DNA from: Deinococcales bacterium
Lineage (GTDB): Bacteria > Deinococcota > Deinococci > Deinococcales > JAAFIG01
Assembly (NCBI GenBank): GCA_031414595.1
Contig: JANNVX010000095.1
Location: 1 to 51,935 of the forward strand
Direction of reading: 5' to 3'
DNA: 51,935 nt
A model generated the notes under the pieces. It was not told where the DNA came from and did not search any database. It saw nothing but the letters and a program-made list of their open reading frames with translations. Made by a program: the position numbers and the translations under genes. Positions 8,100 to 35,450 of this stretch are shown piece by piece. Position 1 is the stretch's first letter; the number at the start of each line of letters is the position of its first letter.

Positions 8100-8115
8100 A
8101 GCCAGCATCAAAACA

Positions 8116-11796: not shown

Positions 11797-11856
11797 GTGC
11801 TTTTTAAGCTGGTTTTGCAAGTAGGTACGCTATTAGACTCATGTTTTGGAGGGCAA

Positions 11857-12849: not shown

Positions 12850-13974
12850 GTGACTGCGATTGCCTTACCTCTGGTGCAGAAAACCCAATCGAAAAGCCAA
12901 TGGCAAGTAATTTGGGAACAATTTAAGAAACAACCCCAAGCTATTTTTGCCTTGTTTGTGCTGCTGGCATTGTACCTAGCGGCTTTTTTTGCTCCGTTTT
13001 TAACACCTTATGACCGCCAAGAAACTTGGGTTCTCGAGGGGGTGCGTTACCAAGCGCCTACTAAAGTACATTTTTGGGGAAATGGTCGTTTACAAGCTCC
13101 TTTTGTGTATGCCACAACCCGTAAAGTGGACGTAGAGAACTTTGAAACCAAGTTTATTGAGGACACCACTCAGAAGTTTCCGATTCGTTTTTTTGCTTCG
13201 CGTGGCGAACCTTATCGGCTCTTTGGGATTCTCGAGACTCGAGTTCGTTTAATCAGTGTGGAAAATCCAGCTCGGCTTTTGATCTTGGGTTCGGATGGAA
13301 CTGGGCGTGATATTTTCTCGAGGGTTTTACTCGGCGCACAGATTAGTTTAACAATTGGGTTTGTAGCGGTTGGCATCAGTTTTTTGATTGGTGCGGTACT
13401 AGGTGGTTTAGCTGGGTACTATGGTGGTTTCTTAGATTCGCTGTTAATGCGTTTTGCTGAAGTGATTCAAGCCATTCCGCCGTTTTTCTTGCTGATTGCA
13501 TTATCGGCACTTATTCCGTCTTTGTTGCCGCCAGAACAGTATTTTTTTGGTGTGATTATCATGCTGGGTTTGACTTCTTGGATGGATTTAGCCAAAGCCA
13601 TTCGCGGACTTGTGCTGTCTATTAGAGACCAAGAATTTATTGTTTCGGCAAGGGCTTTGGGCATTCCCGAAGGACGAATTATTCTGCGCCATATTTTGCC
13701 CAATACCTCCAGTTACCTTGTGGTACTGGGGTCTATTACCATTCCAGGAGCAATTCTTGCCGAGACTGGTTTATCGTTTATTGGTCGTGGGGTGCGAGAA
13801 CCGGGGGTCAGTTGGGGTTTGATGCTGGCAGATATTACCCAAAATGGTGTTTCTGGCTTAAATTTGCATCCATGGGCATTAGCTCCAGGTTGGTACATCT
13901 TGGTCACGATTGTGGCTTGGAATGTTTTAGGTGATGGTTTACGCGCTGCTTTTGACCCAAAGAAACGGCGTTAG
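12850..13974 (+). CDS. Peptide/nickel ABC permease (OppC/DppC-like)
   Basis: LGSDGTGRDIFSRV, EFIVSARALG..RHILPN, GDGLRAAFDPK. Confidence 0.92.
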   Translation: MTAIALPLVQKTQSKSQWQVIWEQFKKQPQAIFALFVLLALYLAAFFAPFLTPYDRQETWVLEGVRYQAPTKVHFWGNGRLQAPFVYATTRKVDVENFETKFIEDTTQKFPIRFFASRGEPYRLFGILETRVRLISVENPARLLILGSDGTGRDIFSRVLLGAQISLTIGFVAVGISFLIGAVLGGLAGYYGGFLDSLLMRFAEVIQAIPPFFLLIALSALIPSLLPPEQYFFGVIIMLGLTSWMDLAKAIRGLVLSIRDQEFIVSARALGIPEGRIILRHILPNTSSYLVVLGSITIPGAILAETGLSFIGRGVREPGVSWGLMLADITQNGVSGLNLHPWALAPGWYILVTIVAWNVLGDGLRAAFDPKKRR

Positions 13975-19099: not shown

Positions 19100-19663
19100 A
19101 TGACCGAAACCGAATTGCTGCGCCCTAAAACCCCTCTGCCAAATTCACCGCGTAATTTTGCCGAACTCGAACGGTACTCAAGCATTAAACGCTTTTGGGA
19201 TTTACTCGAAGGGTGTCATCACAACGGGTTTACGGTGCTTGTGCCAAAGCGAAGCGAACCCCATTTGTGCCGTCGTGAAATTACGGGCATTACCCGACAA
19301 AAAGCCGGTGGTTTGCACAACGATGCAGCCCTTAAAGCGTCCTTTGAAGAAGATGAAGAACTGGCACTCGAGGCGTTTAACCTAATTCCCGAGGCAATGG
19401 AGGCAGTCCAAAAACTGCTCGAGGGTTACAGAGCGCCTTTTATTGAAATTCTCAGTGCTGCCTACCAACTCGAGTTTAGTATTCAATTGGCTTTTACAGC
19501 ACGGCGCGAATTACTCCTGAAAGCCAGTGCTGAATTTGTGCCATTGCCGTACTTAGAGCCGCCATTTCCGATTTCTTGGACACTCGAACCAATTCGTTGG
19601 CGGCGCGATGATTATAAAGTGCTGCTTGAACGAGCCGCATCAGGGTTGTTGCAAAAATCTTGA
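19100..19663 (+). CDS. Hypothetical protein
   Basis: 187-aa ORF with TAGGCT 6 nt before ATG. No family recognised. Confidence 0.65.
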   Translation: MTETELLRPKTPLPNSPRNFAELERYSSIKRFWDLLEGCHHNGFTVLVPKRSEPHLCRREITGITRQKAGGLHNDAALKASFEEDEELALEAFNLIPEAMEAVQKLLEGYRAPFIEILSAAYQLEFSIQLAFTARRELLLKASAEFVPLPYLEPPFPISWTLEPIRWRRDDYKVLLERAASGLLQKS

Positions 19664-19818
19664 GGCTTAAAAGAACAGACTGAGCGCCGATTTTTCGAGA
19701 ATGGGGCAAGTAAATGACTCCAAAAATGACAGTTAAAGTCGGCTGTCCAGTCTTCTCCAAAGCTCAACTCGAGGCAATGCGTTCAGGTGGGGTGCGTTGC
19801 CCAGCCATGATTCAGGGG

Positions 19819-22800
19819 CTAATTGCCCGTATTACGGACGGACATTGAATTAGTGCGTGGTAAGAAAACCGATTCGATGTGGGTATACGACAAACTTGCC
19901 AGTGTATAACTCGAGATGGTCACAAAGAGACTTAAAAAAAACCAGTACCAAGGGTTTTCAATCCCTCCGTATTTGAATTCGGAGTTGTGCAGTAAGCGCA
20001 CCAACTCGAGAATTAAGTAATGCCAGATGTAAATACCAAAGGATAGTTTGGCGGTGTAACGACTAAAGCGGTTATCGAGAATTTTTGGTAATCGGACACT
20101 AAAAGCTGCACTGAATAACAAGAGGGCAATTAAGCTGGGGAAAATGGGGAAGGCATAGGGCTGCATTCCGATACTAAAAGCAAATTCTGGAGCGTAACGC
20201 ACCAGCCAAACCCAAAGCGGAATCAGGATAATGGCAATTGTGGCAATCGTATCAAAGATTTTAGCTTTGCCGTTCTGCTCGAATTTTTGCTGTTGCCGCC
20301 AAGCAATTGCCCCAGCGCAAAGCACACCGAGGATGTAATGACTAAACCAGCCCAACGGGTTGTAATTGGGCATCCAGAATTTTGCGCCGCCAATCAGACC
20401 GTATTGCCAACCGCGTTCTTGTTCGTCCGGCACAAGAAAGTTAAGAATTAAAAAATGAAGTCCTAAAGTCAGCAGCAACACCGCCAGCCAGTAGCCAAAA
20501 GCAAGGTTTGGACTGGTGTTAATAGCAGCCATATCAAAAGACTTGGTGATGATTTTAGTGGTACTACTGCTGGTTATTTGTGTTTCACCTCGGGTTAGGG
20601 TGCGGGTGTTTTGCTTAATAACTCGAGTAGTTTGCTTAACAGGTCGGAGGCGGGCAATGGCAAATAAACCAAGCATAAAAAGTGGCATCAGGGCATAACA
20701 AACCACTTCAAAACCAATGCTCCAAAGTGGACCGTTCAGTTCTGTCGGAAAAAAAGTGGTGTAATGAAAAGCACTGCTAAAGCTCAGTCCAGAAAACAAA
20801 CGCAACCACATCTGCTCACCCGGCTCGAGGCTACGAGCCACGATAAAAGTAACGATCAGCGCCACATAAAACCCCGGGGCAATACGGACAAAACGGCGTT
20901 TGGCATACTCGAGTAAATTCGGCATGGCTTTGGCGGCAAAATAGCTTTTCCAGAAAGGGAGGGCTAAAAGCATTCCAGACAAAACAAAAAAAGCACTGAC
21001 CCCATAACCACCGACCATCAAAAAAGATTTTAATTCTAACAACCACTTAGGAATGTTCTCTGGGCTGAGGCGCTGCCCAAGGTGACTCCAAACCACAGCC
21101 AGACACGCCACAGCCCGAACAAAATCTGCACCATCTAAAACATTTTTTGACACAGATTCAGGGACTGATTGCCGCGCCAAGACTCGAGACCACCAATTTC
21201 TTTGGCTTACTTTGGTTAAACCAAAACCTTGTGCCAATTGTGGCGCACAAAAAATTAGTAAAAGCAAACCGGGGATAGAACCAATCGCACTGGCAAGTAA
21301 AAATCCGTTGCTGTTGGCAAGAAAACCCAGAACTTGGGGGATGACTCGAGTCATTTCGCTTCGCAGCATCAGTGTGGCAATATCGAGTTGATTCCATGTG
21401 CCAATAAAGGTCAGGACTGCAATCGTGATTAAAACAGGGGTTAATAGTGGCAGGGCAATTCGGCGATAAATTAAGAAATTGCTTGCCCCATCCACTCGAG
21501 CCGCCTCGACTAAGGATTTAGGAACGGCATGTAAACAAAACTGCCTGACCAAAAAAACCCCAATCGCACTGTAGGTTGCGGGTAGCCAAAGGGTTCTTGG
21601 AGTGTCTATCCAATCCAAAAGTCGCATTTGCATCAGGTGCGGAATGGCACTGGACAGGGCTGGAAAAACCATGGCAATTAAAACCACTAAAAATAACTGG
21701 CGTTTATAGGCAAACTCGAGGACAGCAAAAGCAAATCCAGCTAAACTACTGGTCAGGGCAGCCCCAAAAGCCGCCAGACTCGAGATATAAATGCTATTCC
21801 AGAGGTTGCGCCAGAACATTGGCATGTCGCGTTGTAAGGCATTGTAATTATTACTCAAATCCGAACCAAGGTTAAAGCCAAATCCCGAGCTATTCTGGCT
21901 TGTGCTGGTCAGGTTGCCCCAGAAATCACGCCAGAAGCCACCAACTCCATCACGCTGAGCGCCAAGGCTTAGGTCAAAGTCTTGGCTGGCTTGTGGGTCA
22001 AAACTCGAGTTCCCTTGGGTGGTCTGAAAAAAAAGCGTCAGCAAAGGTAATACACTGAGTAAAACCATAAAAACCATCGCCAGTTTAATCAAAATCACTT
22101 GAACACGCCCTAAATTGAGCGGTGCATGGTCAGACTCGAGACCAGCAGGGCTTTCTAAACCCGTAAAGTTTCGTCCAAAAGCAAGATAGGCAATGCCCAC
22201 CAAGAGCATTAAAACCAATAAGAAGACCCATGTCTGGGCGGCTGCCATCGAAAAATTGCTGTAATGAAAAGCTGTGCCGAAAATAAAACCGGGAACTTTA
22301 CTGTTTTCAAAATCCGAGTAATCGCCGCGCCAAGCGTTCGCCTGTAAACGCTGGACAATACTGATGCTGATTGCTACAAATGCCATTGGGCGCATCATTG
22401 GAAAAGCAATGCTTTTGAGTTGCCGCCAGAAACCCGCCCCATCAAGTTGGGCTGCCTCGAGCATACTGCGTGGTACGCTAGACAACGCCATTAAGTAAAG
22501 CAAGACATTCCAACCAAAACCATTCCAAATTGCCGAAAAAATATCCAAGCCAAAATCTGGAATCTCTATACCAACCAAACCAAGCACATCGTTAAGCGGG
22601 TTTTTGAACAACTCAAAAAAGAAACTCAGACCACTGCTAAGTGCAATTGGCGCAACCAACATTGGCACAAGCAACAATGCCCCAAGCGAACCCAATGCCC
22701 GCCGTAAGACCAAATGCAACCCAAAAGCGGCTGGAATCGCCAAGGCATGTTGCAACACTAGGGCGGGCAGACCCTCGAGCAGAGAGCGCAGCAGCGCTCT

Positions 22801-23031
22801 CCAAAAAGCAGGGTCGGTAAACACAAAACCATAAAAACGCAAGCCCCGAAAGTAAAATTCACCAGTCCCCTGAATCGGGTCCCATAAAAAAACCGAGATG
22901 AAAAAAGTAAAGGCTAAGCTAAAAATGCCAAAGCCAATAAACAAAACAAAAAAAGGCAACACAAACCATGTGCCACTCGAGATACTGACTCGGGCGGCGG
23001 TTTTCTTGGGTTTTGCCAAAGACCCAATCAT
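19819..23031 (-). CDS. Fusion: carbohydrate ABC permease (MalF-like) + permease (MalG-like) + acyltransferase-3 (OafA-like) domain
   Basis: Two EAA loops (MLEAAQLDGAG, LVEAARVDGAS), then LDGADFVRAVACLAVVWSH, GVSAFFVLSG, KRRFVRIAP, GPLWSIGFEVVCY and SFGIYIWHY. TGATG coupling to the upstream esterase. Confidence 0.85.
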   Translation of the reverse strand: MIGSLAKPKKTAARVSISSGTWFVLPFFVLFIGFGIFSLAFTFFISVFLWDPIQGTGEFYFRGLRFYGFVFTDPAFWRALLRSLLEGLPALVLQHALAIPAAFGLHLVLRRALGSLGALLLVPMLVAPIALSSGLSFFFELFKNPLNDVLGLVGIEIPDFGLDIFSAIWNGFGWNVLLYLMALSSVPRSMLEAAQLDGAGFWRQLKSIAFPMMRPMAFVAISISIVQRLQANAWRGDYSDFENSKVPGFIFGTAFHYSNFSMAAAQTWVFLLVLMLLVGIAYLAFGRNFTGLESPAGLESDHAPLNLGRVQVILIKLAMVFMVLLSVLPLLTLFFQTTQGNSSFDPQASQDFDLSLGAQRDGVGGFWRDFWGNLTSTSQNSSGFGFNLGSDLSNNYNALQRDMPMFWRNLWNSIYISSLAAFGAALTSSLAGFAFAVLEFAYKRQLFLVVLIAMVFPALSSAIPHLMQMRLLDWIDTPRTLWLPATYSAIGVFLVRQFCLHAVPKSLVEAARVDGASNFLIYRRIALPLLTPVLITIAVLTFIGTWNQLDIATLMLRSEMTRVIPQVLGFLANSNGFLLASAIGSIPGLLLLIFCAPQLAQGFGLTKVSQRNWWSRVLARQSVPESVSKNVLDGADFVRAVACLAVVWSHLGQRLSPENIPKWLLELKSFLMVGGYGVSAFFVLSGMLLALPFWKSYFAAKAMPNLLEYAKRRFVRIAPGFYVALIVTFIVARSLEPGEQMWLRLFSGLSFSSAFHYTTFFPTELNGPLWSIGFEVVCYALMPLFMLGLFAIARLRPVKQTTRVIKQNTRTLTRGETQITSSSTTKIITKSFDMAAINTSPNLAFGYWLAVLLLTLGLHFLILNFLVPDEQERGWQYGLIGGAKFWMPNYNPLGWFSHYILGVLCAGAIAWRQQQKFEQNGKAKIFDTIATIAIILIPLWVWLVRYAPEFAFSIGMQPYAFPIFPSLIALLLFSAAFSVRLPKILDNRFSRYTAKLSFGIYIWHYLILELVRLLHNSEFKYGGIENPWYWFFLSLFVTISSYTLASLSYTHIESVFLPRTNSMSVRNTGN

Positions 23032-24005
23032 CAGCCAAGCCAACGCGCAAAGAAACGCAATTTCTCGAGTCCTTGAACGCTCTGACCACCTTCATGGTTA
23101 TTGTATGGATAAACCCGAATCTCTTTTTGTCCAGCGTGATGATTGTAAGCGGCGTAAACTGTACTGGGTGGGCAGATGTCGTCCATTAAGCCAACACTGT
23201 AAAGCGCGGGGCTGCTGGTGCGCTTGGCAAAGTTGATGCCATCAAAATAAGACAGGGTTGTAAAAACCTGCTCGAGTTGGTTACGGTGCATTTTTAGATA
23301 CTGGGTGATTTCGCCGTAAGGGTGGGTCGCCACGATTTCGGTGGCTCGGCGGTAATGGCACAAAAATGGGACATCGGGCGCAAGTGCCGCCACTGGCTCG
23401 AGGGCGGCGGCGGCTATCGCAATCCCTCCACCTTGACTACCGCCAGTCACGGCAATGCGTTTTGGGTCTATCATGCTTAGGTTTTTAGCCGTTTCGATGG
23501 CGCGAACCGCATCGCTAAAAACACGGCGGTAATAATAGCGGTCTTGATGGGTGATGCCTTTGGTCATAAAGCCGGGGATATGTCCGTTGCCGGGGTTATC
23601 GTCTATGTCTGGGGTACTGCCTTTACTCCAAACACTGCCTTGCCCTCGAGTGTCCATAATGATATGGGCATAGCCAGCACTGGCATAAAAAAGTGCATCG
23701 TGAGATTCGCCGCGCCCACCGCCATAACCAACAAATTCAACGATAGCTGCGATTTTTTCGGCTCGAATTTTAGGTAAGGTCAGCCATGCTTTAATCGGTT
23801 GCCCATTGTACCCCGAGAAAGTCAAATCAAAACTTTCAACAGTCTGAAATGGGGAATTTATAGGGGCAAGTTCGATGTTCAGGGCATGAATTCGAGTGGC
23901 TGCGAGTGTCTGTTGCCAAAAGACATCAAAATCAGATGGCTCAAGGACTTCTGGGCGGTAGGTCTGTAATTGCTCGAGCGGCAAGTCAAAGAGTGGCATG
24001 GTCAA
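23031..24005 (-). CDS. Acetylxylan esterase / cephalosporin-C deacetylase family (CE7)
   Basis: EPSDFDVFW, RGQ motif, GGSQGG nucleophile elbow, DDICPPST, HEGG. Start may be 23999. Confidence 0.93.
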   Translation of the reverse strand: MTMPLFDLPLEQLQTYRPEVLEPSDFDVFWQQTLAATRIHALNIELAPINSPFQTVESFDLTFSGYNGQPIKAWLTLPKIRAEKIAAIVEFVGYGGGRGESHDALFYASAGYAHIIMDTRGQGSVWSKGSTPDIDDNPGNGHIPGFMTKGITHQDRYYYRRVFSDAVRAIETAKNLSMIDPKRIAVTGGSQGGGIAIAAAALEPVAALAPDVPFLCHYRRATEIVATHPYGEITQYLKMHRNQLEQVFTTLSYFDGINFAKRTSSPALYSVGLMDDICPPSTVYAAYNHHAGQKEIRVYPYNNHEGGQSVQGLEKLRFFARWLG

Positions 24006-26479
24006 TCATCTCCTATAACCAGTTGGGCTTGCAAGTTAAAGACCTTCTGACCGCCTAAAAAACGAAGTTCAAGTTGCTCGGGGATACTTGCTAATTCGAG
24101 GATTTGCGGGTCGTTGGGCATCAAGTCAAGCATGTTGTCCGAAATTTCGTTGGTCTCGAGCCAAACGGCTTTGACGGGTTTATCGGTGCTGATTTTAAGT
24201 TGGTGCTTTCCAATTTGTTCGACTTGAATGTTGGCTTTCGGTAATTCAAATTGTACATAAGGTTCAGGGAAAATACTGTCTCTGGCAATCACTTGATTAT
24301 TTTGCAGTAAGCGCACCGCATAAATCGCTTGTCCTTGGGGCATTGTACCAAGTTCGGTGCTGGCGTTAGCAGCTAAATTCACAGCTCGAGTTTCAAAATG
24401 GATTACTTGCCCCTGCAAGTCAAAAATGTAAATTTCCAAGTCGCACTGCCATGTTTCTAAGTGGTGGTTGCTTGCCCAAATTGCCCCATCTGTCCAAAGG
24501 TTAATGGTGATGGCTTGCAAGGCGCGTTTAACTGTGTAATAAGCCGGTTTATAGCGGTGGCTCGAGTCTATGATTGCCCAACTGCTGACTTGCCAGCAGT
24601 CGTTGAGTTGCCAAACCAATGCACCACCACAAGCTCGATGATGCGGTCTCCCCCATGCCCGTCGCCAAATTCGGTAAGCCGCATTTAAGGCTTCGGACTG
24701 CACAATTTGGGTGGCAAAAACAAAATCTTCTAGTGTTTCTAGGTTTTTCGCAATATCGGCGGCGTATTTATGGAGGCGCATCATCCCTTGGTCGGCTTTC
24801 ATGTGGTGTTCAAAACTGGGGCTGCTTGGACTCCATTGGTTGGCTGGAATCACTTCACGCAGGGTCTCGAGCCGTGGGGCAGCACACATCCCAAATTCAG
24901 ATACAAAACGTCCACCTAAATGCTGATACTCTCGGTATGGGACGGCTGCACTTCCCCAAACATCCCAAGTGTGCCTGTCGCCGATGGTTTGGTCATCTGG
25001 AAACGCCCCAAAAAAAGGGCTGCCCGCTTGGTAATAGGCATCTGGAGCAAATTCCTGCATACAATTTGGCAAAACCTGTTCGTAAATCACTCGAGCGCCA
25101 AAGGTCGCAGTCGCATCTGGGGCAACACTGGCATCGTATAAGCCTTGTCCAAATGCCAAAGGGTAATCTTCGTTATTGCCTGTCCAAATCACAATACTTG
25201 GATGATTCCGCAGGCGCTTAATTTGGTAGCTGGCTTCTTGTTTTACATTCTCTAAAAAAGCTGGATAGGACGGGTAAATCGCGCAACCAAACATAAAATC
25301 TTGCCAGACTAAAATACCCATTTGGTCACAAAGTTGGTAAAAGATTTTATCCTCGTAAATCCCACCGCCCCAAATTCGCAGCATTGTCATATTGGCATTT
25401 TTAGCCGCCTCAATACGGGCGCGGTAACGTTCTGGGGTGACTCGAGCCAGCATCAGGTCGTCTGGAATCCAATTCGCGCCGCTTGTAAACATGGCAATAC
25501 CATTGATTTCAAAGTAAAAACTCGAGCCGCTCTGGTTGGCAATCGGTTCTTGGACGACCCGCACTTGTCGAATCCCAAAGGATTGCTCAGATTGGTCTAC
25601 AATAACCCCATCTTGGAGTAGCACAACCTTGAGGCAGTACAAGGGCTGAGAACCAAGGGTGTGTGGATACCAAAGTTTGGGTTGCAAAACCATAAATTGG
25701 TGTTTAAGTGCGGTTGTGGCTGGCAACCGCGTTTTCTCGAGGGTTATGCCGTTGGGGTCACAAAGGGTCAAGACCACTTCGGCTGTTTCAAATTGCCCGT
25801 TCAATTGCAACAAAATATCCAAGCTACTAATTTCAAAATTTGGCTCAAGGTTGGTTTGCAAAGTCAGATCGGCAATTCGGGTATTGAACTGCTCGAGCCG
25901 AATTTCTTGCCAAATGCCACTGTCGAGCAGTTTTGGACCCCAATCCCAACTGTAATGGTACTGGGCTTTGCGAACATGGACACGGCTGGCATCGCCGTTC
26001 CACAAGGGTTTTGCCCCACCGTTTGCTTCCATTCGCTTTAAGCCTTCAAACCAGGCGCTCTTAAAATGAATCTCGAGGGTATTTTTGGCTTGTAACTGTA
26101 CAGGTATGCGCTGCCCAAGGAACATATTTTGGTTTTCTAAAATCAATTGCCCATTTAGGTAAACACTGGCAAAGGTATCTAAGCCATCAAAACAGAGTTC
26201 TGAATACGTGTAGTTCTGGTTGGCATTAAACTCGAGACGGTATAACCAATCGCGCTCACCCACCCACTGCACCAAATGTTCGTTCTGGTCGTAGTACGGG
26301 TCTGGAATAAGCTGCTGCTCGAGTAAATTCTGGTAAGTGCTACTGGGTACGCGGCAACTGTACCAGCCTTCTGGTGTGGCAAAATCTGCCTCGAGACTAA
26401 GTTTTATTTGACGTTCTTTGAAAAACCAACCATGATTAAGAATCTGTTGTTGACGCAATTTTAGTTGCGGTATGGACAT
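24002..26479 (-). CDS. GH2 beta-mannosidase
   Basis: FDGLDTFA, RKAQYHYSWDWGP, GANWIP, RIWGGGIYE, WTGNNE, RFVSEFG, WQLNDCW. Confidence 0.93.
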   Translation of the reverse strand: MSIPQLKLRQQQILNHGWFFKERQIKLSLEADFATPEGWYSCRVPSSTYQNLLEQQLIPDPYYDQNEHLVQWVGERDWLYRLEFNANQNYTYSELCFDGLDTFASVYLNGQLILENQNMFLGQRIPVQLQAKNTLEIHFKSAWFEGLKRMEANGGAKPLWNGDASRVHVRKAQYHYSWDWGPKLLDSGIWQEIRLEQFNTRIADLTLQTNLEPNFEISSLDILLQLNGQFETAEVVLTLCDPNGITLEKTRLPATTALKHQFMVLQPKLWYPHTLGSQPLYCLKVVLLQDGVIVDQSEQSFGIRQVRVVQEPIANQSGSSFYFEINGIAMFTSGANWIPDDLMLARVTPERYRARIEAAKNANMTMLRIWGGGIYEDKIFYQLCDQMGILVWQDFMFGCAIYPSYPAFLENVKQEASYQIKRLRNHPSIVIWTGNNEDYPLAFGQGLYDASVAPDATATFGARVIYEQVLPNCMQEFAPDAYYQAGSPFFGAFPDDQTIGDRHTWDVWGSAAVPYREYQHLGGRFVSEFGMCAAPRLETLREVIPANQWSPSSPSFEHHMKADQGMMRLHKYAADIAKNLETLEDFVFATQIVQSEALNAAYRIWRRAWGRPHHRACGGALVWQLNDCWQVSSWAIIDSSHRYKPAYYTVKRALQAITINLWTDGAIWASNHHLETWQCDLEIYIFDLQGQVIHFETRAVNLAANASTELGTMPQGQAIYAVRLLQNNQVIARDSIFPEPYVQFELPKANIQVEQIGKHQLKISTDKPVKAVWLETNEISDNMLDLMPNDPQILELASIPEQLELRFLGGQKVFNLQAQLVIGDD

Positions 26480-26490
26480 AACAACCCCTT

Positions 26491-26503
26491 TGTTTAGTAA
26501 AAA
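26491..26503. promoter_or_regulatory. Candidate LacI-family operator TGTTTAGTAAAAA
   Basis: Related copies at 27626-27639 and, inverted, at 27733-27746. Confidence 0.5.
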
Positions 26504-26594
26504 TGTTTGCTCAAATTAGCATGGTTGTGTTATATTTGCAAACCAAGTAGCACTATCAGGCATAAAGACTTGCTGTATCATCTAAAAGGTAGCC

Positions 26595-27611
26595 ATGACT
26601 CAATCGGTATTTTCTCAAACACATCTCACACGCGCCAAAGTCACCATTCGGGAAGTCGCCAGCGCTTCAGGGGTTTCTATCGGGACAGTCTCGAGGGCGC
26701 TTAAAAATCAGGATGGTTTATCCGAAGAAACCCGTCAACAAGTCTTATCGGCTGCTAAAAAACTCGGCTATGACACTGGAAATTTGCGCCAAGCCAAAAT
26801 TCGGCGCATCACTTTTATCACCACCCGCCTGACCGAATTACCTGCCAACCCGTTTTATGGCGTGGTGCTGCACGGGGCAGAAGATGCTTGTCGTGAACAA
26901 GAAATTGCTTTGTCTTACGCGACCCTAAGACCCCATGACCGGGCTTTGGATATTATTCGCCGCCATGAATCAGATGGCTTAATTCTGGCAAATTTTATCG
27001 AAGCCAAACTGCTCGAAAAGATTGCCCACTTAAACCTCCCAATGGTCTTGGTAGACCATTTGGTGGCTGGTTTTGCTTCGGTCAATATGGACAACCAAGA
27101 CGGCGCAAAACAAGCGGTCAGGCACTTACTCGAGCAGGGACGCAAACGGATTGCTTTTTTAGATGGTCCACCACACCACTCAATCGTTCAGCGTGCCAGA
27201 GGTTTTCGCCAAGCCTTATTCGAGGCGCAAGTTCCCGCCGACCCAGACCTCGAGGCGCGTTGTGACTATTTGTCCGAACCTTACGGTGTTCGTACTGCAA
27301 TGAAGCAGTTACTAAGCCTAAATCAGCCTGTAGATGCGGTTTTTTGTTGGAACGACCTCTGTGCTTTGGATGTTTTGCGCTACTGTCAAGAAATCGGGCT
27401 GCGTGTTCCTGAAGACTTGGCAATCGTTGGCTTTGATGACATTGACCTCGCTCAGCACTCGAGTCCTGCCTTATCCACAATTCATGTGGATAAAGAAGCC
27501 TTGGGGCGTAAAGCTGTGGAAATGCTGCTCGAGAAAGACGAAAGTCAGGTGGTCAATCCTGTGCGCTTGGTGGTCCGAGAAAGCAGTCAGACCCTAAAAA
27601 ATGAATTGTAA
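26595..27611 (+). CDS. LacI-family transcriptional regulator
   Basis: TIREVASASGVSIGTVSRAL HTH; VPEDLAIVGFDDI. Confidence 0.95.
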   Translation: MTQSVFSQTHLTRAKVTIREVASASGVSIGTVSRALKNQDGLSEETRQQVLSAAKKLGYDTGNLRQAKIRRITFITTRLTELPANPFYGVVLHGAEDACREQEIALSYATLRPHDRALDIIRRHESDGLILANFIEAKLLEKIAHLNLPMVLVDHLVAGFASVNMDNQDGAKQAVRHLLEQGRKRIAFLDGPPHHSIVQRARGFRQALFEAQVPADPDLEARCDYLSEPYGVRTAMKQLLSLNQPVDAVFCWNDLCALDVLRYCQEIGLRVPEDLAIVGFDDIDLAQHSSPALSTIHVDKEALGRKAVEMLLEKDESQVVNPVRLVVRESSQTLKNEL

Positions 27612-27694
27612 AAGTCGCTTTAGTATGTTTATTAAAATCTAATTTTTGTTAAAACACTGCCTCCAACAGTGTTTTTTTAATTCTATAGCCCCTC

Positions 27695-27746
27695 TTGACA
27701 TCACTCAAAGTCTGCGCTACTATCTGTTTACCGATTTTAGTAAACA
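27695..27746 (+). promoter_or_regulatory. Sigma-70 promoter TTGACA-17-TACTAT with downstream operator-like palindrome
   Basis: -35 at 27695-27700, -10 at 27718-27723, followed by GTTTAC-N8-GTAAAC. Confidence 0.75.
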
Positions 27747-27820
27747 AAGAAATAAACGGTGTAGAGAAATCAAGCATCTCGAGCAACGAGTCTTGCTTTC
27801 TTGAAAAACGAGGAGCATAT

Positions 27821-29170
27821 ATGAACAAGAAGCTGTTGACGGCATTCGGTTTAGGTGCATTGGCGCTCGGAGCAATGTTTGCTTCGGCACAAAGTAGTCG
27901 CACCAAAGTCACTTGGTTCGTGGGGGTGGGAACGGGTGGACAACCCGACCAGATCGAAGCCGAGAAAGCGGCTGTAGCACGCTACAATAAGGGTCAAGAT
28001 AAAATCGAATTGATTCTCGAGATTGTCGAATACAACTCGGCTCGAGATAACCTCTCGGCTCGAATTGCAGCTGGTAATGCGCCAGACATCGTAGGTCCTG
28101 TCGGGACACAAGGCGCAAACTGGTTCAAAGGTCAATTTATTGACATGGATCCTTTGATTGCTAAGTTCAAACCAGACCTTAAGGGTATTGATGACGGACT
28201 CTTAAAGTTCTACAAGGAATCACAAGGCGGCGAAGGTTTGCCTTACGCTGTTTACCCGAGCTTCTTCTTTTACAACAAAGCACTGTTCAAGGAATCTAAG
28301 TTGCCAGACTTGCCAAGCAAAGTTGGCGAGAAATACCGTGGTCGGACTTGGGATTGGAACGAAGTTCGTCGTTTAGGTATGGAACTGACCTTTGATAACA
28401 AAGGCAACAATGCCGCTTCTGCGAATTTTGACTCCAAGAACATCGAAACATATGGTTTTATCAATCAATGGAACTTGGGAATTACCTCGATGGGTACGGC
28501 ATTTAAGCCAGCTAATGTTTTTCAAAATGGCAAAGCCGTAATAGACCCAGAATGGGTTAATGCGATTCGTTACTACCACAATGGCATTTGGAAAGATAAA
28601 TTTATGCCAAGCCAAGCCGCCATGGACACCGATTTGCTCGGACGTGGAAACGCCTTTAACTCTGGCAATGTAGCAATGGCATGGACACACTTGTGGTACA
28701 CCTGCTGCTTAGACCCTGCCGGAACTGGCAAAGTCAAGGATTGGGGCGTGGCGGTCATGCCAAGCTACAAAGGCAAGACTGTTGCTAAACTGCACGCCGA
28801 TACCTTCCGCATCATGAAAGGCAGTAAAGTCAAAGAGGAAGCCTTCCAAGCGATGTGGTGGATTATGAACCAAAAAGACCTTTTGGTTACTTACGGCGCT
28901 TTCCCAGCTGACGAGGACTTGCAAGACGATTACATTGCTGCCGTCAACAAAAAATATGCACCCGTTAAAATCAATTGGAGTGTTGTTAAAGAAATGCTCA
29001 AATACACCGACACCCCAAGCCACGAACAATACTACCCAAACTTTACCAAAGTGGATGACATCTTCGCAAAACTTGCCACCAAAGTCCTGACCCAACCAAC
29101 CCTAAACATCAGCCAAGAAGTCAGCAATACCCAAAAAGAAATCCAACGCGCTTTTGACGAAAAGAAATAA
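27821..29170 (+). CDS. Carbohydrate ABC transporter substrate-binding protein
   Basis: AGGAG RBS, signal peptide, IAAGNAPDIV, LPYAVYPSFFFYNKALF, FNSGNVAM. Confidence 0.92.
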   Translation: MNKKLLTAFGLGALALGAMFASAQSSRTKVTWFVGVGTGGQPDQIEAEKAAVARYNKGQDKIELILEIVEYNSARDNLSARIAAGNAPDIVGPVGTQGANWFKGQFIDMDPLIAKFKPDLKGIDDGLLKFYKESQGGEGLPYAVYPSFFFYNKALFKESKLPDLPSKVGEKYRGRTWDWNEVRRLGMELTFDNKGNNAASANFDSKNIETYGFINQWNLGITSMGTAFKPANVFQNGKAVIDPEWVNAIRYYHNGIWKDKFMPSQAAMDTDLLGRGNAFNSGNVAMAWTHLWYTCCLDPAGTGKVKDWGVAVMPSYKGKTVAKLHADTFRIMKGSKVKEEAFQAMWWIMNQKDLLVTYGAFPADEDLQDDYIAAVNKKYAPVKINWSVVKEMLKYTDTPSHEQYYPNFTKVDDIFAKLATKVLTQPTLNISQEVSNTQKEIQRAFDEKK

Positions 29171-29217: not shown

Positions 29218-29239
29218 TCAGTTCAAAAATAGGATGTGT

Positions 29240-30166: not shown

Positions 30167-31242
30167 GCTTAGTTATCCCAAAAGTGAGAACCCAAACGGT
30201 ACAACGTCAAAATCAACGGATATGGCGCTCGAGAATTGTTTCGATTCTGGTAACCGCCCTGATTGCTTGGACGGCTTGGGTTTTTTTAACCCCATTTTAT
30301 GAACAACTGAATGCCAGTCTAGGTGCAGCTTCTCGAGAACCCGGGCAGCCATTTGGTCCGTATGTCGGACAGATTTTTAACTATCAGAACCAAGAATTAA
30401 AAATCTATAACGTGCCAATCAATGGCTCAACCCAGCAACTTGCGCTGCTCGAGCCGGGTCGTACCAGCAGTGTTTTTATTGACCCTAAAAATCCAAATAC
30501 CCCTATTACTTACGAAGGCTCTTACCGTGCTTTAGAGCGGCTCTGGACTTTTAGCCCTCGTTTTTCTAATTATGTGGAAGCCTGGGATCGTTTGCCCGGT
30601 GGTTTTGTGCGTGGTTTAAGCAACACTTTTATTATTGCGGGCTTAAGTACCCTGGGGGTTTTGATTAGTTCTACTTTTACGGCGTATGGTTTGGCACGTT
30701 TTAATATGCCCTATAAAGACTTTTTACTTGGTCTAGTGACAGTTACTTTAATGCTACCGACAGTGGTTTTGTTTGTGCCGCAATATATTCTTTTTTTTAA
30801 GATAGGTTGGGTCGGGACATGGTTACCTTTGATTGTGCCATCGTTTTTTGGCAGTGCTTATAGTATTTTCTTATTGCGCCAATTCTTCTTAGCCATTCCT
30901 AAAGAGTTTGATGAAGCTGCCAAAGTAGACGGTGCAAACCCATTGCAAATTCTTTGGTTTATTTTACTGCCTTTAATCCGCCCAGCTTTAATTGCTGTGG
31001 CAATACTACATTTTATCTTTGTCTGGAACGATTTTTTCTACCCGACCTTGTACTTGGCTGGTAAAACCGATTTGATGCCTGTATCGGTCTTGATGCGGAT
31101 GTTTAGCTCGAGTTACGGCAGCAGTACCCCACATCTGATTTCGGCAGCTGCCGTGATTGCTACAGTTGTACCAATGGTTTTATTTTTAATCGCCCAGCGT
31201 CCTTTTATTCGAGCCATCACCATGCCGGGGTTAGACAAATGA
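30163..31242 (+). CDS. Carbohydrate ABC permease (MalG-like)
   Basis: AYGLARF, FLLRQFF, EFDEAAKVDGA, WNDFF. Confidence 0.93.
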   Translation: MSLVIPKVRTQTVQRQNQRIWRSRIVSILVTALIAWTAWVFLTPFYEQLNASLGAASREPGQPFGPYVGQIFNYQNQELKIYNVPINGSTQQLALLEPGRTSSVFIDPKNPNTPITYEGSYRALERLWTFSPRFSNYVEAWDRLPGGFVRGLSNTFIIAGLSTLGVLISSTFTAYGLARFNMPYKDFLLGLVTVTLMLPTVVLFVPQYILFFKIGWVGTWLPLIVPSFFGSAYSIFLLRQFFLAIPKEFDEAAKVDGANPLQILWFILLPLIRPALIAVAILHFIFVWNDFFYPTLYLAGKTDLMPVSVLMRMFSSSYGSSTPHLISAAAVIATVVPMVLFLIAQRPFIRAITMPGLDK

Positions 31243-32237
31243 AATACATTATTGGAGTGCTAGTTGCACTGATAGGAATAACCATGACCCAAGCCCAAAA
31301 CAGCCCTCGAGATATTTTTGCGGTCAATAAAACCTTAGCCCGCACCATGAATTTCGGTAATGCCCTAGAAGCCCCGTCCGAGGGCGCATGGGGTGTAAAA
31401 CTCGAGGAACGGTTTTTTGATTTGGTTAAACAGGGTGGCTTTACCGCCATTCGTTTACCAGTTAAATTTAGTGCCTATGCCGCCGAAGCTGCACCGTACA
31501 CACTCAAGCGTGAATTACTACTGCGGGTTGACTGGGCGATTCAAAATGCCAAGAAGCGTGGTTTAAGTATTATTTTAGACTTACACCATTACGACGACCT
31601 GATGCAAAAACCAACTGAGCATTTGGAGCGCTGGCTTGGCATTTGGCAACAACTTGCGATGCGTTACAAAAATCAACCAGACACGGTTATCTTTGAGCCT
31701 TGTAACGAACCACACGAGAAAATCGAGCCGTACTGGAATGATTATTTTGCCAAAGTATTGGCGGTTATTCGCCAAACCAATCCAACTCGAGCCGTGATTG
31801 TTGGCGGTAATGGTTGGAATAACGCTGACCGCTTAAAAGAATTGGTGTTGCCCGAAGACTCAAATCTGATTGTCACTTTTCATAATTACAATCCGTTTCC
31901 ATTTACCCACCAAGGGGCAGAATGGTGGGCAGACGGCTATAAACACCTTGGAACACTCTGGAAAGGTACACCTGACGAGCAAGCCAATGTGATTCAGCAC
32001 ATTAAACTTGGGGTGGATTATGCCCAAAGCCTTGGCAAACCACTTTTTATGGGTGAATTTGGCGCATACAACAAAGCCGACTCTGCCTCACGACTGCGTT
32101 GGACCAAGTTTACTCGAGAAACCATCGAAGCCTCTGGTGCAAGTTGGGGTTACTGGGAATTTGCTTCTGGTTTTGGAGTTTACGACAATTTAATGAAACG
32201 CTGGCGTAAAGACTTACTTGATGCGCTGACTAAATAA
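31239..32237 (+). CDS. Secreted GH5 endoglucanase/mannanase
   Basis: Signal peptide, MNFGNALEAP.EGAWG, catalytic NEP and MGEFG, WGYWEF. Confidence 0.92.
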   Translation: MKYIIGVLVALIGITMTQAQNSPRDIFAVNKTLARTMNFGNALEAPSEGAWGVKLEERFFDLVKQGGFTAIRLPVKFSAYAAEAAPYTLKRELLLRVDWAIQNAKKRGLSIILDLHHYDDLMQKPTEHLERWLGIWQQLAMRYKNQPDTVIFEPCNEPHEKIEPYWNDYFAKVLAVIRQTNPTRAVIVGGNGWNNADRLKELVLPEDSNLIVTFHNYNPFPFTHQGAEWWADGYKHLGTLWKGTPDEQANVIQHIKLGVDYAQSLGKPLFMGEFGAYNKADSASRLRWTKFTRETIEASGASWGYWEFASGFGVYDNLMKRWRKDLLDALTK

Positions 32238-32251
32238 GAAAAGGAATAATC

Positions 32252-33589
32252 ATGGGTTTACATCGTTCACAATTTCCAAATCATTTTTTGTTTGGCGCAG
32301 CCACCTCGAGTTACCAAATCGAAGGCGCAGCCAATCTTGACGGACGCAGCCCAAGCATCTGGGATACCTTTGCCCACTCAGCAGGTCGTACCAAAAATGG
32401 CGACACTGGCGATGTGGCTTGCGACCATTATCACCGCTATCTTGAAGACACCGACCTGATGCAGCAACTTAATTTTAATGCTTACAGGTTCAGTACCAGT
32501 TGGTCTAGGGTACTGCCCGAAGGCAGAGGGCGAATCAATCAAGCAGGGATAGATTTTTACTCGAGACTGGTGGATTCTTTGCTTGAACGTGGGATTGAGC
32601 CGTGGCTAACCTTGTACCACTGGGATTTACCGCAAGCCTTAGAGGACAAAGGCGGTTGGGGCGCTCGAGACACTGCTTTTGCCTTTGCCGAGTATGCCCA
32701 AACGATGGCAACCCATTTAGGAGACCGAGTTAAAAACTGGTTTACCCATAACGAACCTTGGTGTACGGCTTTTTTAGGGCATCAAATCGGTATGTTTGCG
32801 CCTGGCAAAAAAGACCCAGCTTTAGCGCTACAAGTGGCGCATCATTTGTTGTTGTCGCATGGACTGGCAATTCCAGCCATTCGCAGCGCCTCGAGCCAAG
32901 CCAAAGTCGGGGCTGCCTTAAACCTCTGGACGGTGCATCCAGCTTCCGAATCTGAGGCTGATATTCTGGCGGCTAAACGCTACGATGGTTTTTCCAATCG
33001 CTGGTTTTTAGACCCGCTTTATCGGCAAAGCTACCCCGCCGATATGCTCGAGTTATATGCTGGTCATGCACCAAAAATCGAGGCTGGCGATATGGGAATC
33101 ATTGCTACCCCAACCGATTTTTTGGGGGTCAATTACTATATTCGGATGGTTGTGGCAAATGATTCAAGCAACCCGTACCTTGGCACAAAAACTGTTTTAC
33201 CCCCAGACAGCCAGTACACCGATTTTAATTGGGAAGTCTATCCTGATGGCTTACGTGAATGTCTCGAGCGAGTCCAAAGCGAATACAACCCCAAGGCATT
33301 GTACATCACCGAAAATGGGGCGTGCTATGACGATGACATCAATGCCGAAGGTGTGGTGGCTGACCATAAACGCCAAAAATACCTCGAACAGCACTTAGAA
33401 GCCGCCCATCAAGCCCGCAGCAATGGCGCAAAACTCGAGGGGTATTTTGCTTGGAGTTTAATGGATAATTTTGAATGGGCAGAAGGCTACAGCCGACGTT
33501 TTGGTTTGGTGCATGTGGATTTTAAGACCCAAAAACGCACCCCTAAATTATCGGCACATTGGTATAAAAACTTTTTAGGAAACCCATGA
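32252..33589 (+). CDS. GH1 beta-glucosidase
   Basis: FLFGAATSSYQIEGA, THNEP, ITENG, WSLMDNFEWAEG. Confidence 0.96.
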   Translation: MGLHRSQFPNHFLFGAATSSYQIEGAANLDGRSPSIWDTFAHSAGRTKNGDTGDVACDHYHRYLEDTDLMQQLNFNAYRFSTSWSRVLPEGRGRINQAGIDFYSRLVDSLLERGIEPWLTLYHWDLPQALEDKGGWGARDTAFAFAEYAQTMATHLGDRVKNWFTHNEPWCTAFLGHQIGMFAPGKKDPALALQVAHHLLLSHGLAIPAIRSASSQAKVGAALNLWTVHPASESEADILAAKRYDGFSNRWFLDPLYRQSYPADMLELYAGHAPKIEAGDMGIIATPTDFLGVNYYIRMVVANDSSNPYLGTKTVLPPDSQYTDFNWEVYPDGLRECLERVQSEYNPKALYITENGACYDDDINAEGVVADHKRQKYLEQHLEAAHQARSNGAKLEGYFAWSLMDNFEWAEGYSRRFGLVHVDFKTQKRTPKLSAHWYKNFLGNP

Positions 33590-34389
33590 ACCCGATTTCT
33601 TTTATCAGTGCCAATTTTGTGGCTCGAGAACTTGATTACAACATGACCGAAGGCTGGATGCAGGGCGACACCGCCACCCAAGAATTCTTTAAGCCATTGA
33701 AAACCTTTGAAGCAAGGTTTATTGCAATGCTGGCAGAAATTAAAAGCATGGGGTTTAACCATCTCGACTTATGGGGGGCGCATCTTCATCCAAATTGGGC
33801 AACCCCCGAACACTTAGGAATAGCAAAAAACGCCCTTCGAGAACAAGGTTTAACCGTCACTAGCCTTGCGGCTTGGTGTGGCGACCTTGAAGCCCTAGAA
33901 GGTTTTACTCGAGTTGCCAATGCACTTGACACAACCATTATCGCTGGCGGTGCGCCAGTCCTGACTCAGGCTCGAGCCGAAACACTGCATATTTTGCGCC
34001 AGACTGGGGTTAAAATTGCTATCGAAAACCACCCCGAAAAAAATGCTTTGGAGGTTCTAGCCCAAATTGGTTCAGACCACGATTTCATCGGCGCAGCCCC
34101 CGATACAGGTTGGTGGGGAACACAAAATATGGACAGCCCAACTGCTCTGCGTGAATTGGGGCAGCATATTTTGATTGTCCATTTTAAGGATGTCAAAGAG
34201 GCTGGAACGCACCAAACCTGCCGTTTTGGGGATGGAATCGTCAACCTTAAAGGCAGCTTAGAAGCCCTGCAAGAAATCGGTTACACGGGTGTTCTTGGTA
34301 TCGAACACGAACCCGAAGAACACAATCCAAGGGCTGATATTGTCTACAGCAAAACCTTGCTCGAGACTTGGTTAGGGGGCAAGCGATGA
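33586..34389 (+). CDS. Sugar phosphate isomerase/epimerase-family (xylose-isomerase-like TIM barrel) protein
   Basis: AIENH, DTGW, HFKD and IEHE metal-ligand pattern. Confidence 0.85.
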   Translation: MNPISFISANFVARELDYNMTEGWMQGDTATQEFFKPLKTFEARFIAMLAEIKSMGFNHLDLWGAHLHPNWATPEHLGIAKNALREQGLTVTSLAAWCGDLEALEGFTRVANALDTTIIAGGAPVLTQARAETLHILRQTGVKIAIENHPEKNALEVLAQIGSDHDFIGAAPDTGWWGTQNMDSPTALRELGQHILIVHFKDVKEAGTHQTCRFGDGIVNLKGSLEALQEIGYTGVLGIEHEPEEHNPRADIVYSKTLLETWLGGKR

Positions 34390-35450
34390 AACTGGCAATC
34401 ATTGGTTGTGGCAACATTGCTGGACCGTATTCCAAAGACCTGCAACAACATCCAGACCTCGAGATTATAGGATTCTATGACCTTGACCCACAAAAAGCAC
34501 AGTTATTGGCTGACAAATACGGCGGTCTTGTCTATCCAACCCTAGAAGCAGCCCTGCAAGACCCGACGGTTGAAATGATTGTCAATCTAACCATTTTTAA
34601 CGCCCATTATGAGGTGGTGAAAGCCGGTTTATTGGCAGGAAAACATGTCTACAGCGAAAAACCTCTGGCACTCGAGGCAGCCCAAGCCTTTGAATTGGTA
34701 CAACTGGCAGAGCAAGTTGGTAAGCGCCTTGCTTGCGCTCCAATTACTTTTTTAGGCGAAGCCCAACAAACAGCCTTGCAAACCATTCGCCAAGGAAAAA
34801 TAGGGCAATTGCGGGTTATTTATGCTGAAGTCAACCACGGACGAATCGAATCTTGGCATCCAAACCCAGCCCCATTTTACGCGGTTGGTCCGATGCTTGA
34901 TGTCGGGGTTTACCCATTAACACTGGTCACGGCATTGCTTGGTGCTGCGATTCGCTTAAGCAGTTTTGCCACCACTTTGCATCCCAACCGTATCAGCCAA
35001 GATGGTACAGCCTTTAAGGTGGACAACCCAGATTTTTATGTGGTCAATCTTGAATTCCCCAACAACATCATCATGCGTTTAACCTGTAATTTTTATGTTT
35101 CAGGTAAAAGTAAACAAGCCGAAAGCATCGAATTTCATGGCGACCAAAGCTCCTTGTACCTCGAGTCTTGGTTTGGGGCAGATTGCCGTTTAGAACAAGC
35201 TGATTTTGGACAAAGCGAGTATCAAAGCCTGCCTTTAGCGCAAGAACCGACCAGCCATATAGACTGGTCTCGAGGGATAAAAGATTTTGTGGCTGCCATC
35301 CAAGAAAACCGTGTTTCTCGAGTAACTGGAGCGCAAGCAGCACACATTGTCGAGATTCTTGAAGCGGCAAATATCAGTGCCAAAAGTGGTCGTCCAATAG
35401 ATTTACATTCTACTTTTGAACCACCCGCCCCGATGGACTGGGCAAAATAG
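34386..35450 (+). CDS. Gfo/Idh/MocA-family oxidoreductase
   Basis: IIGCGNIA, GKHVYSEKP, GPMLDVGVY. ATGA overlap. Confidence 0.92.
   Translation: MKLAIIGCGNIAGPYSKDLQQHPDLEIIGFYDLDPQKAQLLADKYGGLVYPTLEAALQDPTVEMIVNLTIFNAHYEVVKAGLLAGKHVYSEKPLALEAAQAFELVQLAEQVGKRLACAPITFLGEAQQTALQTIRQGKIGQLRVIYAEVNHGRIESWHPNPAPFYAVGPMLDVGVYPLTLVTALLGAAIRLSSFATTLHPNRISQDGTAFKVDNPDFYVVNLEFPNNIIMRLTCNFYVSGKSKQAESIEFHGDQSSLYLESWFGADCRLEQADFGQSEYQSLPLAQEPTSHIDWSRGIKDFVAAIQENRVSRVTGAQAAHIVEILEAANISAKSGRPIDLHSTFEPPAPMDWAK

Follow-up and report, generated by a model that had tools for sequence, protein, structure and literature searches.

A gene fusion of two sugar ABC importer permease domains with an AT3 acyltransferase domain, and its relatives in and beyond the Deinococcota

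Binding-protein-dependent transport, as carried out by the type I sugar importers of the CUT1 family of ATP-binding cassette (ABC) transporters, is not known to alter its cargo. AT3 enzymes, in the literature devoted to them, decorate glycans which the cells themselves make; among them OpgC/MdoC and NodX/NolL are AT3 proteins that acylate soluble oligosaccharides. Here we describe a gene which joins both kinds of protein in one chain. It lies on the minus strand, at 19819..23031, of contig JANNVX010000095.1 (assembly GCA_031414595.1) from a Deinococcales bacterium, whose whole stretch of 51,935 nucleotides was analysed and is called the window below, and it encodes a MalF/SugA-like permease, a MalG/SugB-like permease and an AT3 acyltransferase. 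By repeated fusion and by operon position an AT3 clade is tied to glycan uptake. Judged from sequences, this family of fusions is real, conserved and unstudied: full-text searches of main texts in a paper collection brought up no account of an AT3 protein that is joined to an ABC importer or works with one, the words permease and ABC are absent from two AT3/TmAT reviews, and the one paper found to hold both PF01757 and PF00528 concerns an exopolysaccharide (EPS) locus.

The gene is a single open frame on the minus strand (19819..23043), which gives 1074 residues if begun at the TTG at 23043. The first ATG, at 23031, is the likely start (about 1070 residues); residues are numbered here from the TTG. 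The MalF/UgpA/SugA-like half (residues 22-290, 22174..22980) has six helices in the structure model. Taken alone it reaches 15.8 bits with BPD_transp_1, which is under the Pfam cut-off of 26.4, and it matches the MalF-type models UgpA (NCBIfam, 1.8e-12), GlcT and MalF as well as, over residues 24-280, the solved SugA (PDB 7cad_A, 8.7e-13). A linker recognised in the alignment (residues 291-312, 22108..22173) joins it to the MalG/UgpE/SugB-like half (residues 313-606, 21226..22107), in which a long periplasmic loop follows the first helix. This middle third is found by BPD_transp_1 (PF00528) at residues 434-596 with 46.2 bits, against the cut-off of 26.4, and matches the UgpE/MalG/GlcU models and, in PDB, the solved SugB (1e-14) and MalG (1e-11). 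Each half carries an EAA coupling loop, EAAQLDGAGFWRQLKSIAFP and EAARVDGASNFLIYRRIALP, evident from sequence and alignment at E196 to P215 (22399..22458) and at E513 to P532 (21448..21507).

A variable basic linker (residues 607-638, 21130..21225; pLDDT under 50 at 614-633) leads from the MalG-like half into the AT3/TmAT domain (residues 639-1060, 19864..21129; PF01757 4.5e-32), which has ten long helices and is found by Pfam at residues 638-1048 with 111.8 bits against a cut-off of 31. In its helix 1 sequence and alignment reveal the motif R643-X10-H654 (21082..21117), and at the cytoplasmic end of helix 3 lies RRxxR (R716, R717, R720; 20884..20898), which is the RXXR motif. The loop between helices 5 and 6 holds a GGAKxWxPxYN motif (residues 885-895, 20359..20391), and a lineage-specific insert rich in K, R and T (residues 799-844, 20512..20649) appears as a beta-hairpin in the model. 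The chain continues for about 14 residues past the last AT3 helix and has no Pfam match to SGNH/GDSL. All these features lie on the minus strand. A first-pass annotation, made from the letters alone, had proposed one uninterrupted frame of about 1070 residues with two permeases and an AT3 domain. The open frame and the profile and PDB matches bear this out, and on rereading the sequence all its coordinates and motifs proved correct, EAAQLDGA, EAARVDGA, R-X10-H (R643/H654) and RRFVR (R717/R720, the RXXR motif) being all present in the protein.

The fusion is no artefact; it is ancient, and selection acts on each of its three parts. Four Logan contigs of 32-38 kb, each assembled from a single run, span 19700-24100 with 0 differences and 0 gaps; the four runs are four samples of one study, which may be the window's own source. 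A search of 5.8 billion proteins, with 8000 candidates scored, gave 87 proteins at E <= 0.001, 69 of which hold both PF01757 and PF00528 (823-1188 residues, 37-95% identity, 63-100% coverage). Among the remaining ones, one is an AT3 plus MFS protein and 17 are fused permease pairs without AT3. The named members come from Deinococcus and Meiothermus and are labelled merely as 'acyltransferase family protein'. A scan of GTDB genomes returned 24 loci, nine from Deinococcales with the fusion and 15 from Paenibacillaceae/Bacillota matching the AT3 part only. In the phylum the AT3 domain was matched at 1e-40 in 32 of 364 genomes; by family, the window's own genome not counted, these are 15 of 18 (f1), 10 of 125 (f2), 5 of 68 (f4) and 1 of 128 (f5). 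The full-length fusion was confirmed in nine genera of the phylum, complete chromosomes among them, one of 5.08 Mb. The fusion at L046 (G114:C1:3427000-3446999), for example, is 41% identical over residues 6-1063, and the window's genome itself harbours a second triple fusion of 1007 residues (contig C15, L033:10068-13091, minus strand) with 38-49% identity. Two of the checks suggested by the first-pass annotation, support across the junctions (here from per-run contigs) and full-length homologues in independent genomes, thus speak for the fusion. That a frameshift, a mis-assembly or a decaying pseudogene merely joins three genes has virtually no chance of being true, given four contigs identical across the gene, full-length homologues in nine genera and on complete chromosomes, invariant motifs and an inter-permease linker of fixed length.

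This constancy is seen in an alignment of 44 full-length fusions, from which all the following figures on conservation are taken. In the first EAA loop E196, A197 and G202 are found in 44 of 44 sequences, and the same holds for E513 and G519 in the second. R643 is present in all 44 and H654 in 43; in the RRxxR motif R716 and R717 occur in 44 of 44 and R720 in 43 of 44. R-X10-H and RXXR are the motifs termed essential in the study of OafB (PMC9833829). The linker between the permeases has exactly 22 residues in every one of the 44 fusions and its sequence is conserved, and the linker into AT3 varies from 23 to 76 residues. Compared with the window protein, identity averages 44% in the MalF-like half, 51% in the MalG-like core and 52% in AT3. 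A degeneration of the permease halves, which had been named as something that would undo the first interpretation, is rejected, since identity is alike in the three parts and neither half has decayed.

In the GGAKxWxPxYN motif G885, G886, K888, W890 and Y894 are invariant in the fusions. The motif recurs in the AT3 consensus of 45 rows (the window's domain and 44 stand-alone relatives), where the W, P and N positions reach at least 90%. It corresponds to the loop that in OafB holds the catalytic Tyr194, as given in the OafB study (PMC9833829), and we infer that it faces the periplasm. The insert rich in K, R and T is long (38-59 residues) in 12 of the 44 fusions, has 22 residues in one and 10 or fewer in 31; it is probably cytoplasmic.

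The structure models are in line with these assignments. AlphaFold2 modelled the whole protein from the alignment of the 44 fusions with a pLDDT of 81.4 and a pTM of 0.75, and low confidence is found mainly at the termini, in the MalG-AT3 linker and in one AT3 loop. The insert was modelled with strands at 802-815 and 822-835. With the whole model Foldseek gave as the best solved match the fused importer FbpB (582 columns, TMt 0.67), followed by SugA/SugB chains (TMt 0.64-0.75, SugA up to 0.75) and MalG (0.62-0.72). The rows shown are importer subunits and two low-probability calcium-channel rows, with no acyltransferase among them. In the model the permease halves appear to pack as in a true fused importer. 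The AT3 domain modelled alone, from 44 stand-alone relatives, reached a pLDDT of 90 and a pTM of 0.90 and is an all-helical membrane protein with the ten-helix TmAT core. It matches HGSNAT with Z 14.4 (rmsd 5.6, 315 aligned) and Z 13.6 (rmsd 5.8, 322 aligned) and GWT1 with Z 11.1; the next row has 4.3. The models thus suggest a polypeptide of about 22 membrane helices, 6 + 6 + 10, with all junctions in the cytoplasm. In such an arrangement AT3 would be oriented in the canonical way, its Arg residues lying inside and His654 pointing outward. From its sequence, the AT3 domain is apparently a complete and active acyl-CoA-dependent O-acyltransferase.

Outside the phylum the same AT3 clade is found with other transporter partners. 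HMMER with the AT3 domain gave 5094 representatives at 0.001 and 107 at 1e-30, mostly stand-alone proteins of about 390-440 residues. Seventeen matches were checked by Pfam; most had been chosen for odd length, and three were ordinary stand-alone controls. Among them are permease-AT3 (P0109, P0126, P0127), AT3-permease (P0111) and permease-AT3-permease (P0121) proteins, and the further forms are AT3-MFS (P0073), Wzy-AT3, VanZ-AT3-PHP and AT3-DUF2141. They come from Uliginosibacterium, Rhizobacter and a deltaproteobacterial metagenome-assembled genome (MAG). In total five transporter arrangements occur in the clade: MalF-AT3 (Uliginosibacterium MAGs), MalG-AT3 (freshwater metagenomes), AT3-permease, permease-AT3-permease and AT3-MFS. 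A look-up by language model returned, as a lead only, a cluster of 921-residue proteins with AT3 plus permease that is commonest in Bacillota (score 0.87).

In a tree built from 94 AT3 domains picked by hand, the triple fusions group in essentially a single clade. MalF-AT3 and the permease-AT3-permease form fall into a second, and MalG-AT3 into a third together with transporter-adjacent stand-alone genes; AT3-permease and AT3-MFS stand elsewhere, and Wzy- and VanZ-fused AT3s lie outside the clade as its outgroups. A constraint that puts the 33 transporter-fused rows together in a single clade, a group defined after the tree had been seen, costs 448 log-likelihood (lnL) units and is rejected by the approximately unbiased (AU) test (p-AU 0.0007), and with it a single origin. 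By the evidence of these sequences, the AT3 clade has been fused to membrane domains of sugar transporters several separate times. Repeated independent fusion of one AT3 clade to importer domains suggests, by the Rosetta-stone argument, that AT3 and importer work together. The first-pass annotation had tied acyl transfer to sugar transport, and the functional tie gains support from these fusions; the chemistry itself is a prediction.

The neighbourhood of clade members in metagenomes points the same way. A metagenome scan gave 80 loci, of which 20 have at least 3 kb on both sides; three of these 20 are fusions, and in nine an unfused AT3 gene lies at most three genes from a gene for a solute-binding protein (SBP), MalF or MalG. 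Six metagenome loci were annotated by Pfam (60 of 84 open reading frames, ORFs). In L089 genes for a glycoside hydrolase (GH) of family GH16, an oxidoreductase, MalG, MalF and an SBP stand divergent to AT3 and then GH5, and in L069 AT3 is divergent to GH16, LacI, GH1, MalG, MalF and SBP. L125 reads SBP, MalF, MalG, GH42, GH2, then GH1 and AT3. The contig L115 carries an arabinan locus with LacI, MalG-AT3 (6023-8107), SBP, MalF, MalG, GH51, araB, araD and araA; here a single MalF faces two MalG-type partners, one plain and one bearing AT3, which are 38% identical. Two high-GC MalF-AT3 genes lie in housekeeping contexts. The frequent predicted co-transcription of clade AT3 genes with catabolic GHs, such as GH5 or GH1, adds to the functional tie.

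For the triple fusions we looked at 19 distinct loci, with neighbours annotated within about four genes. The ORFs were annotated in two batches, 71 of 79 (those of L037 left out) and 75 of 80 (five of L045 left out). Thirteen of the 19 lie within glycan-utilisation loci, for glycans of plants and algae. Six are of a mannan type with GH2 and/or LacI plus SBP (the window, L004, L005, L006, L007, L049), three have GH81 and are of a beta-1,3-glucan type (L033, L050, L054), three are of a xylan type with GH10/GH43 (L051, L052, L053), and one has a GH39-like/GH1/GH3 context (L042). A separate SBP and/or permease gene is found at most four genes away in 11 of the 19. The second fusion of the window's genome (L033) is the first gene of a beta-1,3-glucan operon, in which LacI, SBP, two permeases, GH81 and GH1 follow it. 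In L007 a GDSL esterase lies downstream on the opposite strand. Paenibacillus/Fontibacillus loci contain a stand-alone AT3 about 41% identical to the domain.

As an observation of its own, a GFO/IDH/MocA oxidoreductase recurs near clade AT3 genes of unrelated loci, namely in the window (33586-35450, plus strand), L007:14086-16076, L038:4023-5865 and L089:2859-3959. It is paired with a xylose-isomerase-like TIM barrel protein in three of the four loci and stands alone in L089. This recurrence hints at an oxidative side path for imported sugars.

In the window itself the fusion is the last gene of an operon GH2 > CE7 > fusion, in the order first annotated. The first gene encodes a GH2 beta-mannosidase without signal peptide (24002..26479, minus strand; PDB 5n6u 1e-145), the second a CE7 acetyl esterase, likewise without signal peptide (23031..23999, minus strand; AXE1 6.6e-117, TM0077-type 1vlq 5.4e-127). 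Both junctions had been described as stop/start overlaps. This holds for CE7 and the fusion, where the TGA stop shares one base with the ATG (TGATG). At the other junction the GH2 stop is followed by 'cc', a 2-nt spacer, and then by the CE7 ATG at 23999, where the AXE1 profile begins, and an overlap exists only if CE7 begins at the TTG at 24005. A scan of 19400-27800 gave 6 promoter-like sites against 9.0 expected and 16 terminator-like sites against 11.1.

Divergent from this operon and on the plus strand lie a LacI-family regulator (26595..27611; Pfam), a CUT1 SBP with signal peptide (27821..29170, open frame from 27695; SBP_bac_1 2.4e-19) and an unfused conventional permease pair (29234-30166 and 30163-31242; Pfam), so that the normal pair reported earlier for this locus is indeed there, with its SBP. 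They are followed by a secreted GH5 of the endoglucanase/mannanase type, a GH1 without signal peptide, a sugar-isomerase-like TIM barrel protein and the GFO/IDH/MocA oxidoreductase (31239..35450, plus strand). The unfused permeases are 28% and 34% identical to the corresponding halves of the fusion; because identity is only 28-34%, a recent duplication of these neighbours is rejected as the origin of the fusion. Neither an SBP nor an ATPase is encoded in the fusion's operon; one OB_MalK-type (MsmX/MalK-type) ATPase is found in the genome, on a different contig. A PDB search with the window's binding protein gave UspC alone (4.5e-6), from which no substrate was assigned.

The adjoining esterase had led to the proposal that the fusion is coupled to an acetyl esterase. 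This is no trait of the family. Besides the window, a CE7 homologue occurs only in L002, L003 and L004, the fusions of which share 78-96% identity with the window's own, and CE7 is absent from all other fusion loci searched. Roseburia intestinalis is described as importing acetylated manno-oligosaccharides and deacetylating them inside the cell (PMC6385246), and by this analogy a cytoplasmic esterase in a mannan locus would be ordinary. CE7 can therefore not be used as evidence for an acylating importer, because it is confined to near relatives and cytoplasmic esterases are normal in mannan loci which import naturally acetylated fragments.

The reading we favour, if tentatively and on sequence grounds, is an importer equipped with AT3 that O-acylates its oligosaccharide cargo at the outer face of the membrane, in parallel to an ordinary importer. 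The fusion would provide both transmembrane subunits of a CUT1, that is type I, binding-protein-dependent sugar ABC importer. AT3 would be oriented as usual, so that acyl-CoA enters from the cytoplasm and the catalytic His lies at the outer face. A periplasmic binding protein, probably that encoded at 27821-29170 and shared with the neighbouring ordinary permease pair, would be the partner, and the genome's single MsmX/MalK-type ATPase would deliver the power. Where the importer opens to the periplasm, the oligosaccharide would then receive an acyl group, probably acetyl, from cytoplasmic acyl-CoA, and the cell would own a plain and an acylating importer for the same glycan. The product might be imported as an ester and then deacylated, or it might be marked for exclusion or privatisation. 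The canonical AT3 orientation together with the conserved outer-face residues suggests acyl transfer to something outside the membrane, for which the oligosaccharide delivered by the SBP would be the simplest acceptor.

Several observations weigh against this reading. It is not obvious why an importer driven by ATP should modify its cargo, and acetylation followed by deacetylation would waste acetyl-CoA. Six of the 19 fusion loci lie outside sugar contexts, four of them (L040, L041, L043, L045) between aroB/aroQ of the shikimate pathway and rplM/rpsI; the other two are L044 and L048. Stand-alone clade AT3 genes in two other families of the phylum have no adjacent transporter or nearby sugar genes in four out of four loci scanned, and the one Paenibacillus locus scanned (L009) likewise has no adjacent transporter or sugar genes. 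Of the 20 informative metagenome loci eight are without adjacent transporter. The link to transporters depends on lineage when loci are grouped in 70% clusters (7 of 7 in one, 1 of 6 in another), and many positive metagenome loci are near-copies of one freshwater lineage.

A bolder form of the favoured reading would make the carriage itself a chemical step. In such an acyl-group translocation, an ABC counterpart of the phosphotransferase system, the importer would modify its cargo during carriage, the built-in AT3 pore spending cytoplasmic acyl-CoA so as to esterify the oligosaccharide within the translocation path or beside it, and the AT3 clade as a whole, whether fused or only neighbouring, would be a so far unrecognised accessory subunit of sugar importers in several phyla. 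We regard this as rather unlikely.

Alternatively the AT3 domain could act as a gatekeeper similar to LacA, acylating surplus or non-cognate glycosides at the transporter mouth, which would so be kept out or kept from competitors, with the permease halves mainly recruiting the loaded binding protein. The operon logic parallels lacZ-lacY-lacA with GH2, permease and acetyltransferase, and a complete ordinary importer stands beside most fusions. Loci for many different glycans, too, would fit a general housekeeping chemistry better than a substrate-specific one. However, both EAA loops are invariant, which argues for ATPase coupling and translocation, and LacA is cytoplasmic and has a different fold. 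We consider a gatekeeper unlikely.

The acceptor could also be a glycan of the envelope or periplasm (S-layer glycan, peptidoglycan, periplasmic glucan), the importer halves supplying or sensing sugar or serving as a scaffold. The bacterial AT3 proteins characterised so far mostly modify envelope or secreted glycans, and both the six fusion loci in housekeeping contexts and the Wzy- and VanZ-fused outgroups of the clade would agree with such an acceptor. On the other hand the fusion to importer domains recurred independently in several orders, once with an MFS transporter, and clade members are predicted to be co-transcribed with catabolic GHs. Nor were glycan-synthesis genes seen beside 18 of the 19 fusions; in the remaining locus, L042, a GT2 gene lies four genes off on the other strand. 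An envelope acceptor is improbable in our view.

There is a slim chance that AT3 is a regulatory module, whose cavity binds acetyl-CoA and tunes the importer to the carbon status (trans-inhibition) with no acyl transfer to the cargo. Appended domains often regulate ABC importers, as in MetNI, ModBC and MalK, and the AT3 cavity is described as open to the cytoplasm and binding acyl-CoA (PMC9833829). The conserved outer-face His of helix 1 and the GGAKxWxPxYN loop would be difficult to account for in a cytoplasmic sensor.

Very unlikely is the reverse reaction, an acetyl salvage in which AT3 takes acetyl off acetylated mannan or xylan oligosaccharides and transfers it onto cytoplasmic CoA, a possibility already raised for acetylated mannan by the first-pass annotation. 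Mannan and xylan are the commonest contexts of the triple fusions and the main two O-acetylated hemicelluloses, and CE7 adjoins the fusion in the window. However, transfer from ester to thioester is thermodynamically uphill, CE7 is missing from fusion loci beyond the near relatives of the window, and clade AT3s are also found in loci for beta-1,3-glucan (GH81), arabinan (GH51/araBDA) and beta-galactosides (GH42/GH2), glycans which are not normally acetylated. An export of acylated glycans, also proposed at first, is unlikely because the permease halves have the type I importer fold.

Two further ORFs of the window may be mentioned. One of 495 residues without Pfam match (37187-38674, minus strand) directly follows an ECF-type sigma factor gene (38671-39273, minus strand), with which it overlaps, and may encode an anti-sigma factor. 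The other, of 500 residues (10294-11796, plus strand), has no Pfam match at 1e-4; it directly precedes two Opp/Dpp-type permease genes (11797-12840, 12850-13974) and may encode a divergent binding protein.

If the tie between AT3 and importer is functional, a step of covalent modification would be added to binding-protein-dependent transport. It may then also illuminate the long-standing puzzle of acetyltransferases such as LacA and Maa in sugar uptake operons, and would offer a new handle on the bacterial competition for hemicellulose fragments.

Compared with known systems, the protein is closest in its first two thirds to the CUT1 type I importers (MalFGK2, LpqY-SugABC, UgpAEC). Its halves match SugA/SugB and MalG in sequence and fold and possess the EAA loops, an SBP and a LacI regulator are encoded at the locus, and a single, presumably shared MsmX/MalK-type ATPase in the genome. 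It differs from these importers in that the halves are joined to each other and to a ten-helix acyltransferase, that its operon is without its own SBP or ATPase gene, and that a second, ordinary permease pair adjoins. FbpB of Thermus thermophilus (PDB 9j4r) likewise has both permease halves in one chain, but it imports iron, lacks an acyltransferase and shares 18% identity. Both membrane halves in one chain are also found in unannotated fused MalFG-like proteins (P0074-P0090, 593-612 residues), which are without AT3. The other AT3-transporter fusions (MalF-AT3, MalG-AT3, AT3-permease, permease-AT3-permease, AT3-MFS) share the AT3 clade, but order and number of the domains differ and they represent separate fusion events.

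With the AT3 O-acyltransferases (OafA/OafB, OatA, Oac) the last third shares PF01757, R-X10-H, RXXR and the ten-helix TmAT fold. Unlike them, the fusion lies in catabolic and not in glycan-synthesis loci and is covalently tied to importer subunits, and in contrast to the AT3-SGNH enzymes (OafA, OafB, OatA, PglI) it has no C-terminal SGNH domain. LacA and Maa, sugar O-acetyltransferases encoded with sugar uptake systems, would resemble it in that an acetyl-CoA-dependent sugar acetyltransferase is made along with a GH2 enzyme and a sugar permease. LacA, however, is a soluble cytoplasmic left-handed beta-helix which acts on the inner side and has no homology to the fusion; no hexapeptide-repeat family is among the fusion's Pfam matches, and the likeness to LacA/Maa is one of operon logic only. 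The closest structural match to the AT3 domain is HGSNAT, the lysosomal transmembrane acetyltransferase (PDB 8jkv, 8tu9), although this enzyme is eukaryotic, N-acetylates glucosamine, is 10-12% identical and has no transporter joined to it. HGSNAT is described as a TmAT enzyme whose acetylation step belongs to glycan breakdown (PMC11357348). By sequence and modelled fold, then, the protein groups with the AT3/TmAT enzymes and with the CUT1 importer subunits, and not with the AT3-SGNH enzymes or the LacA fold.

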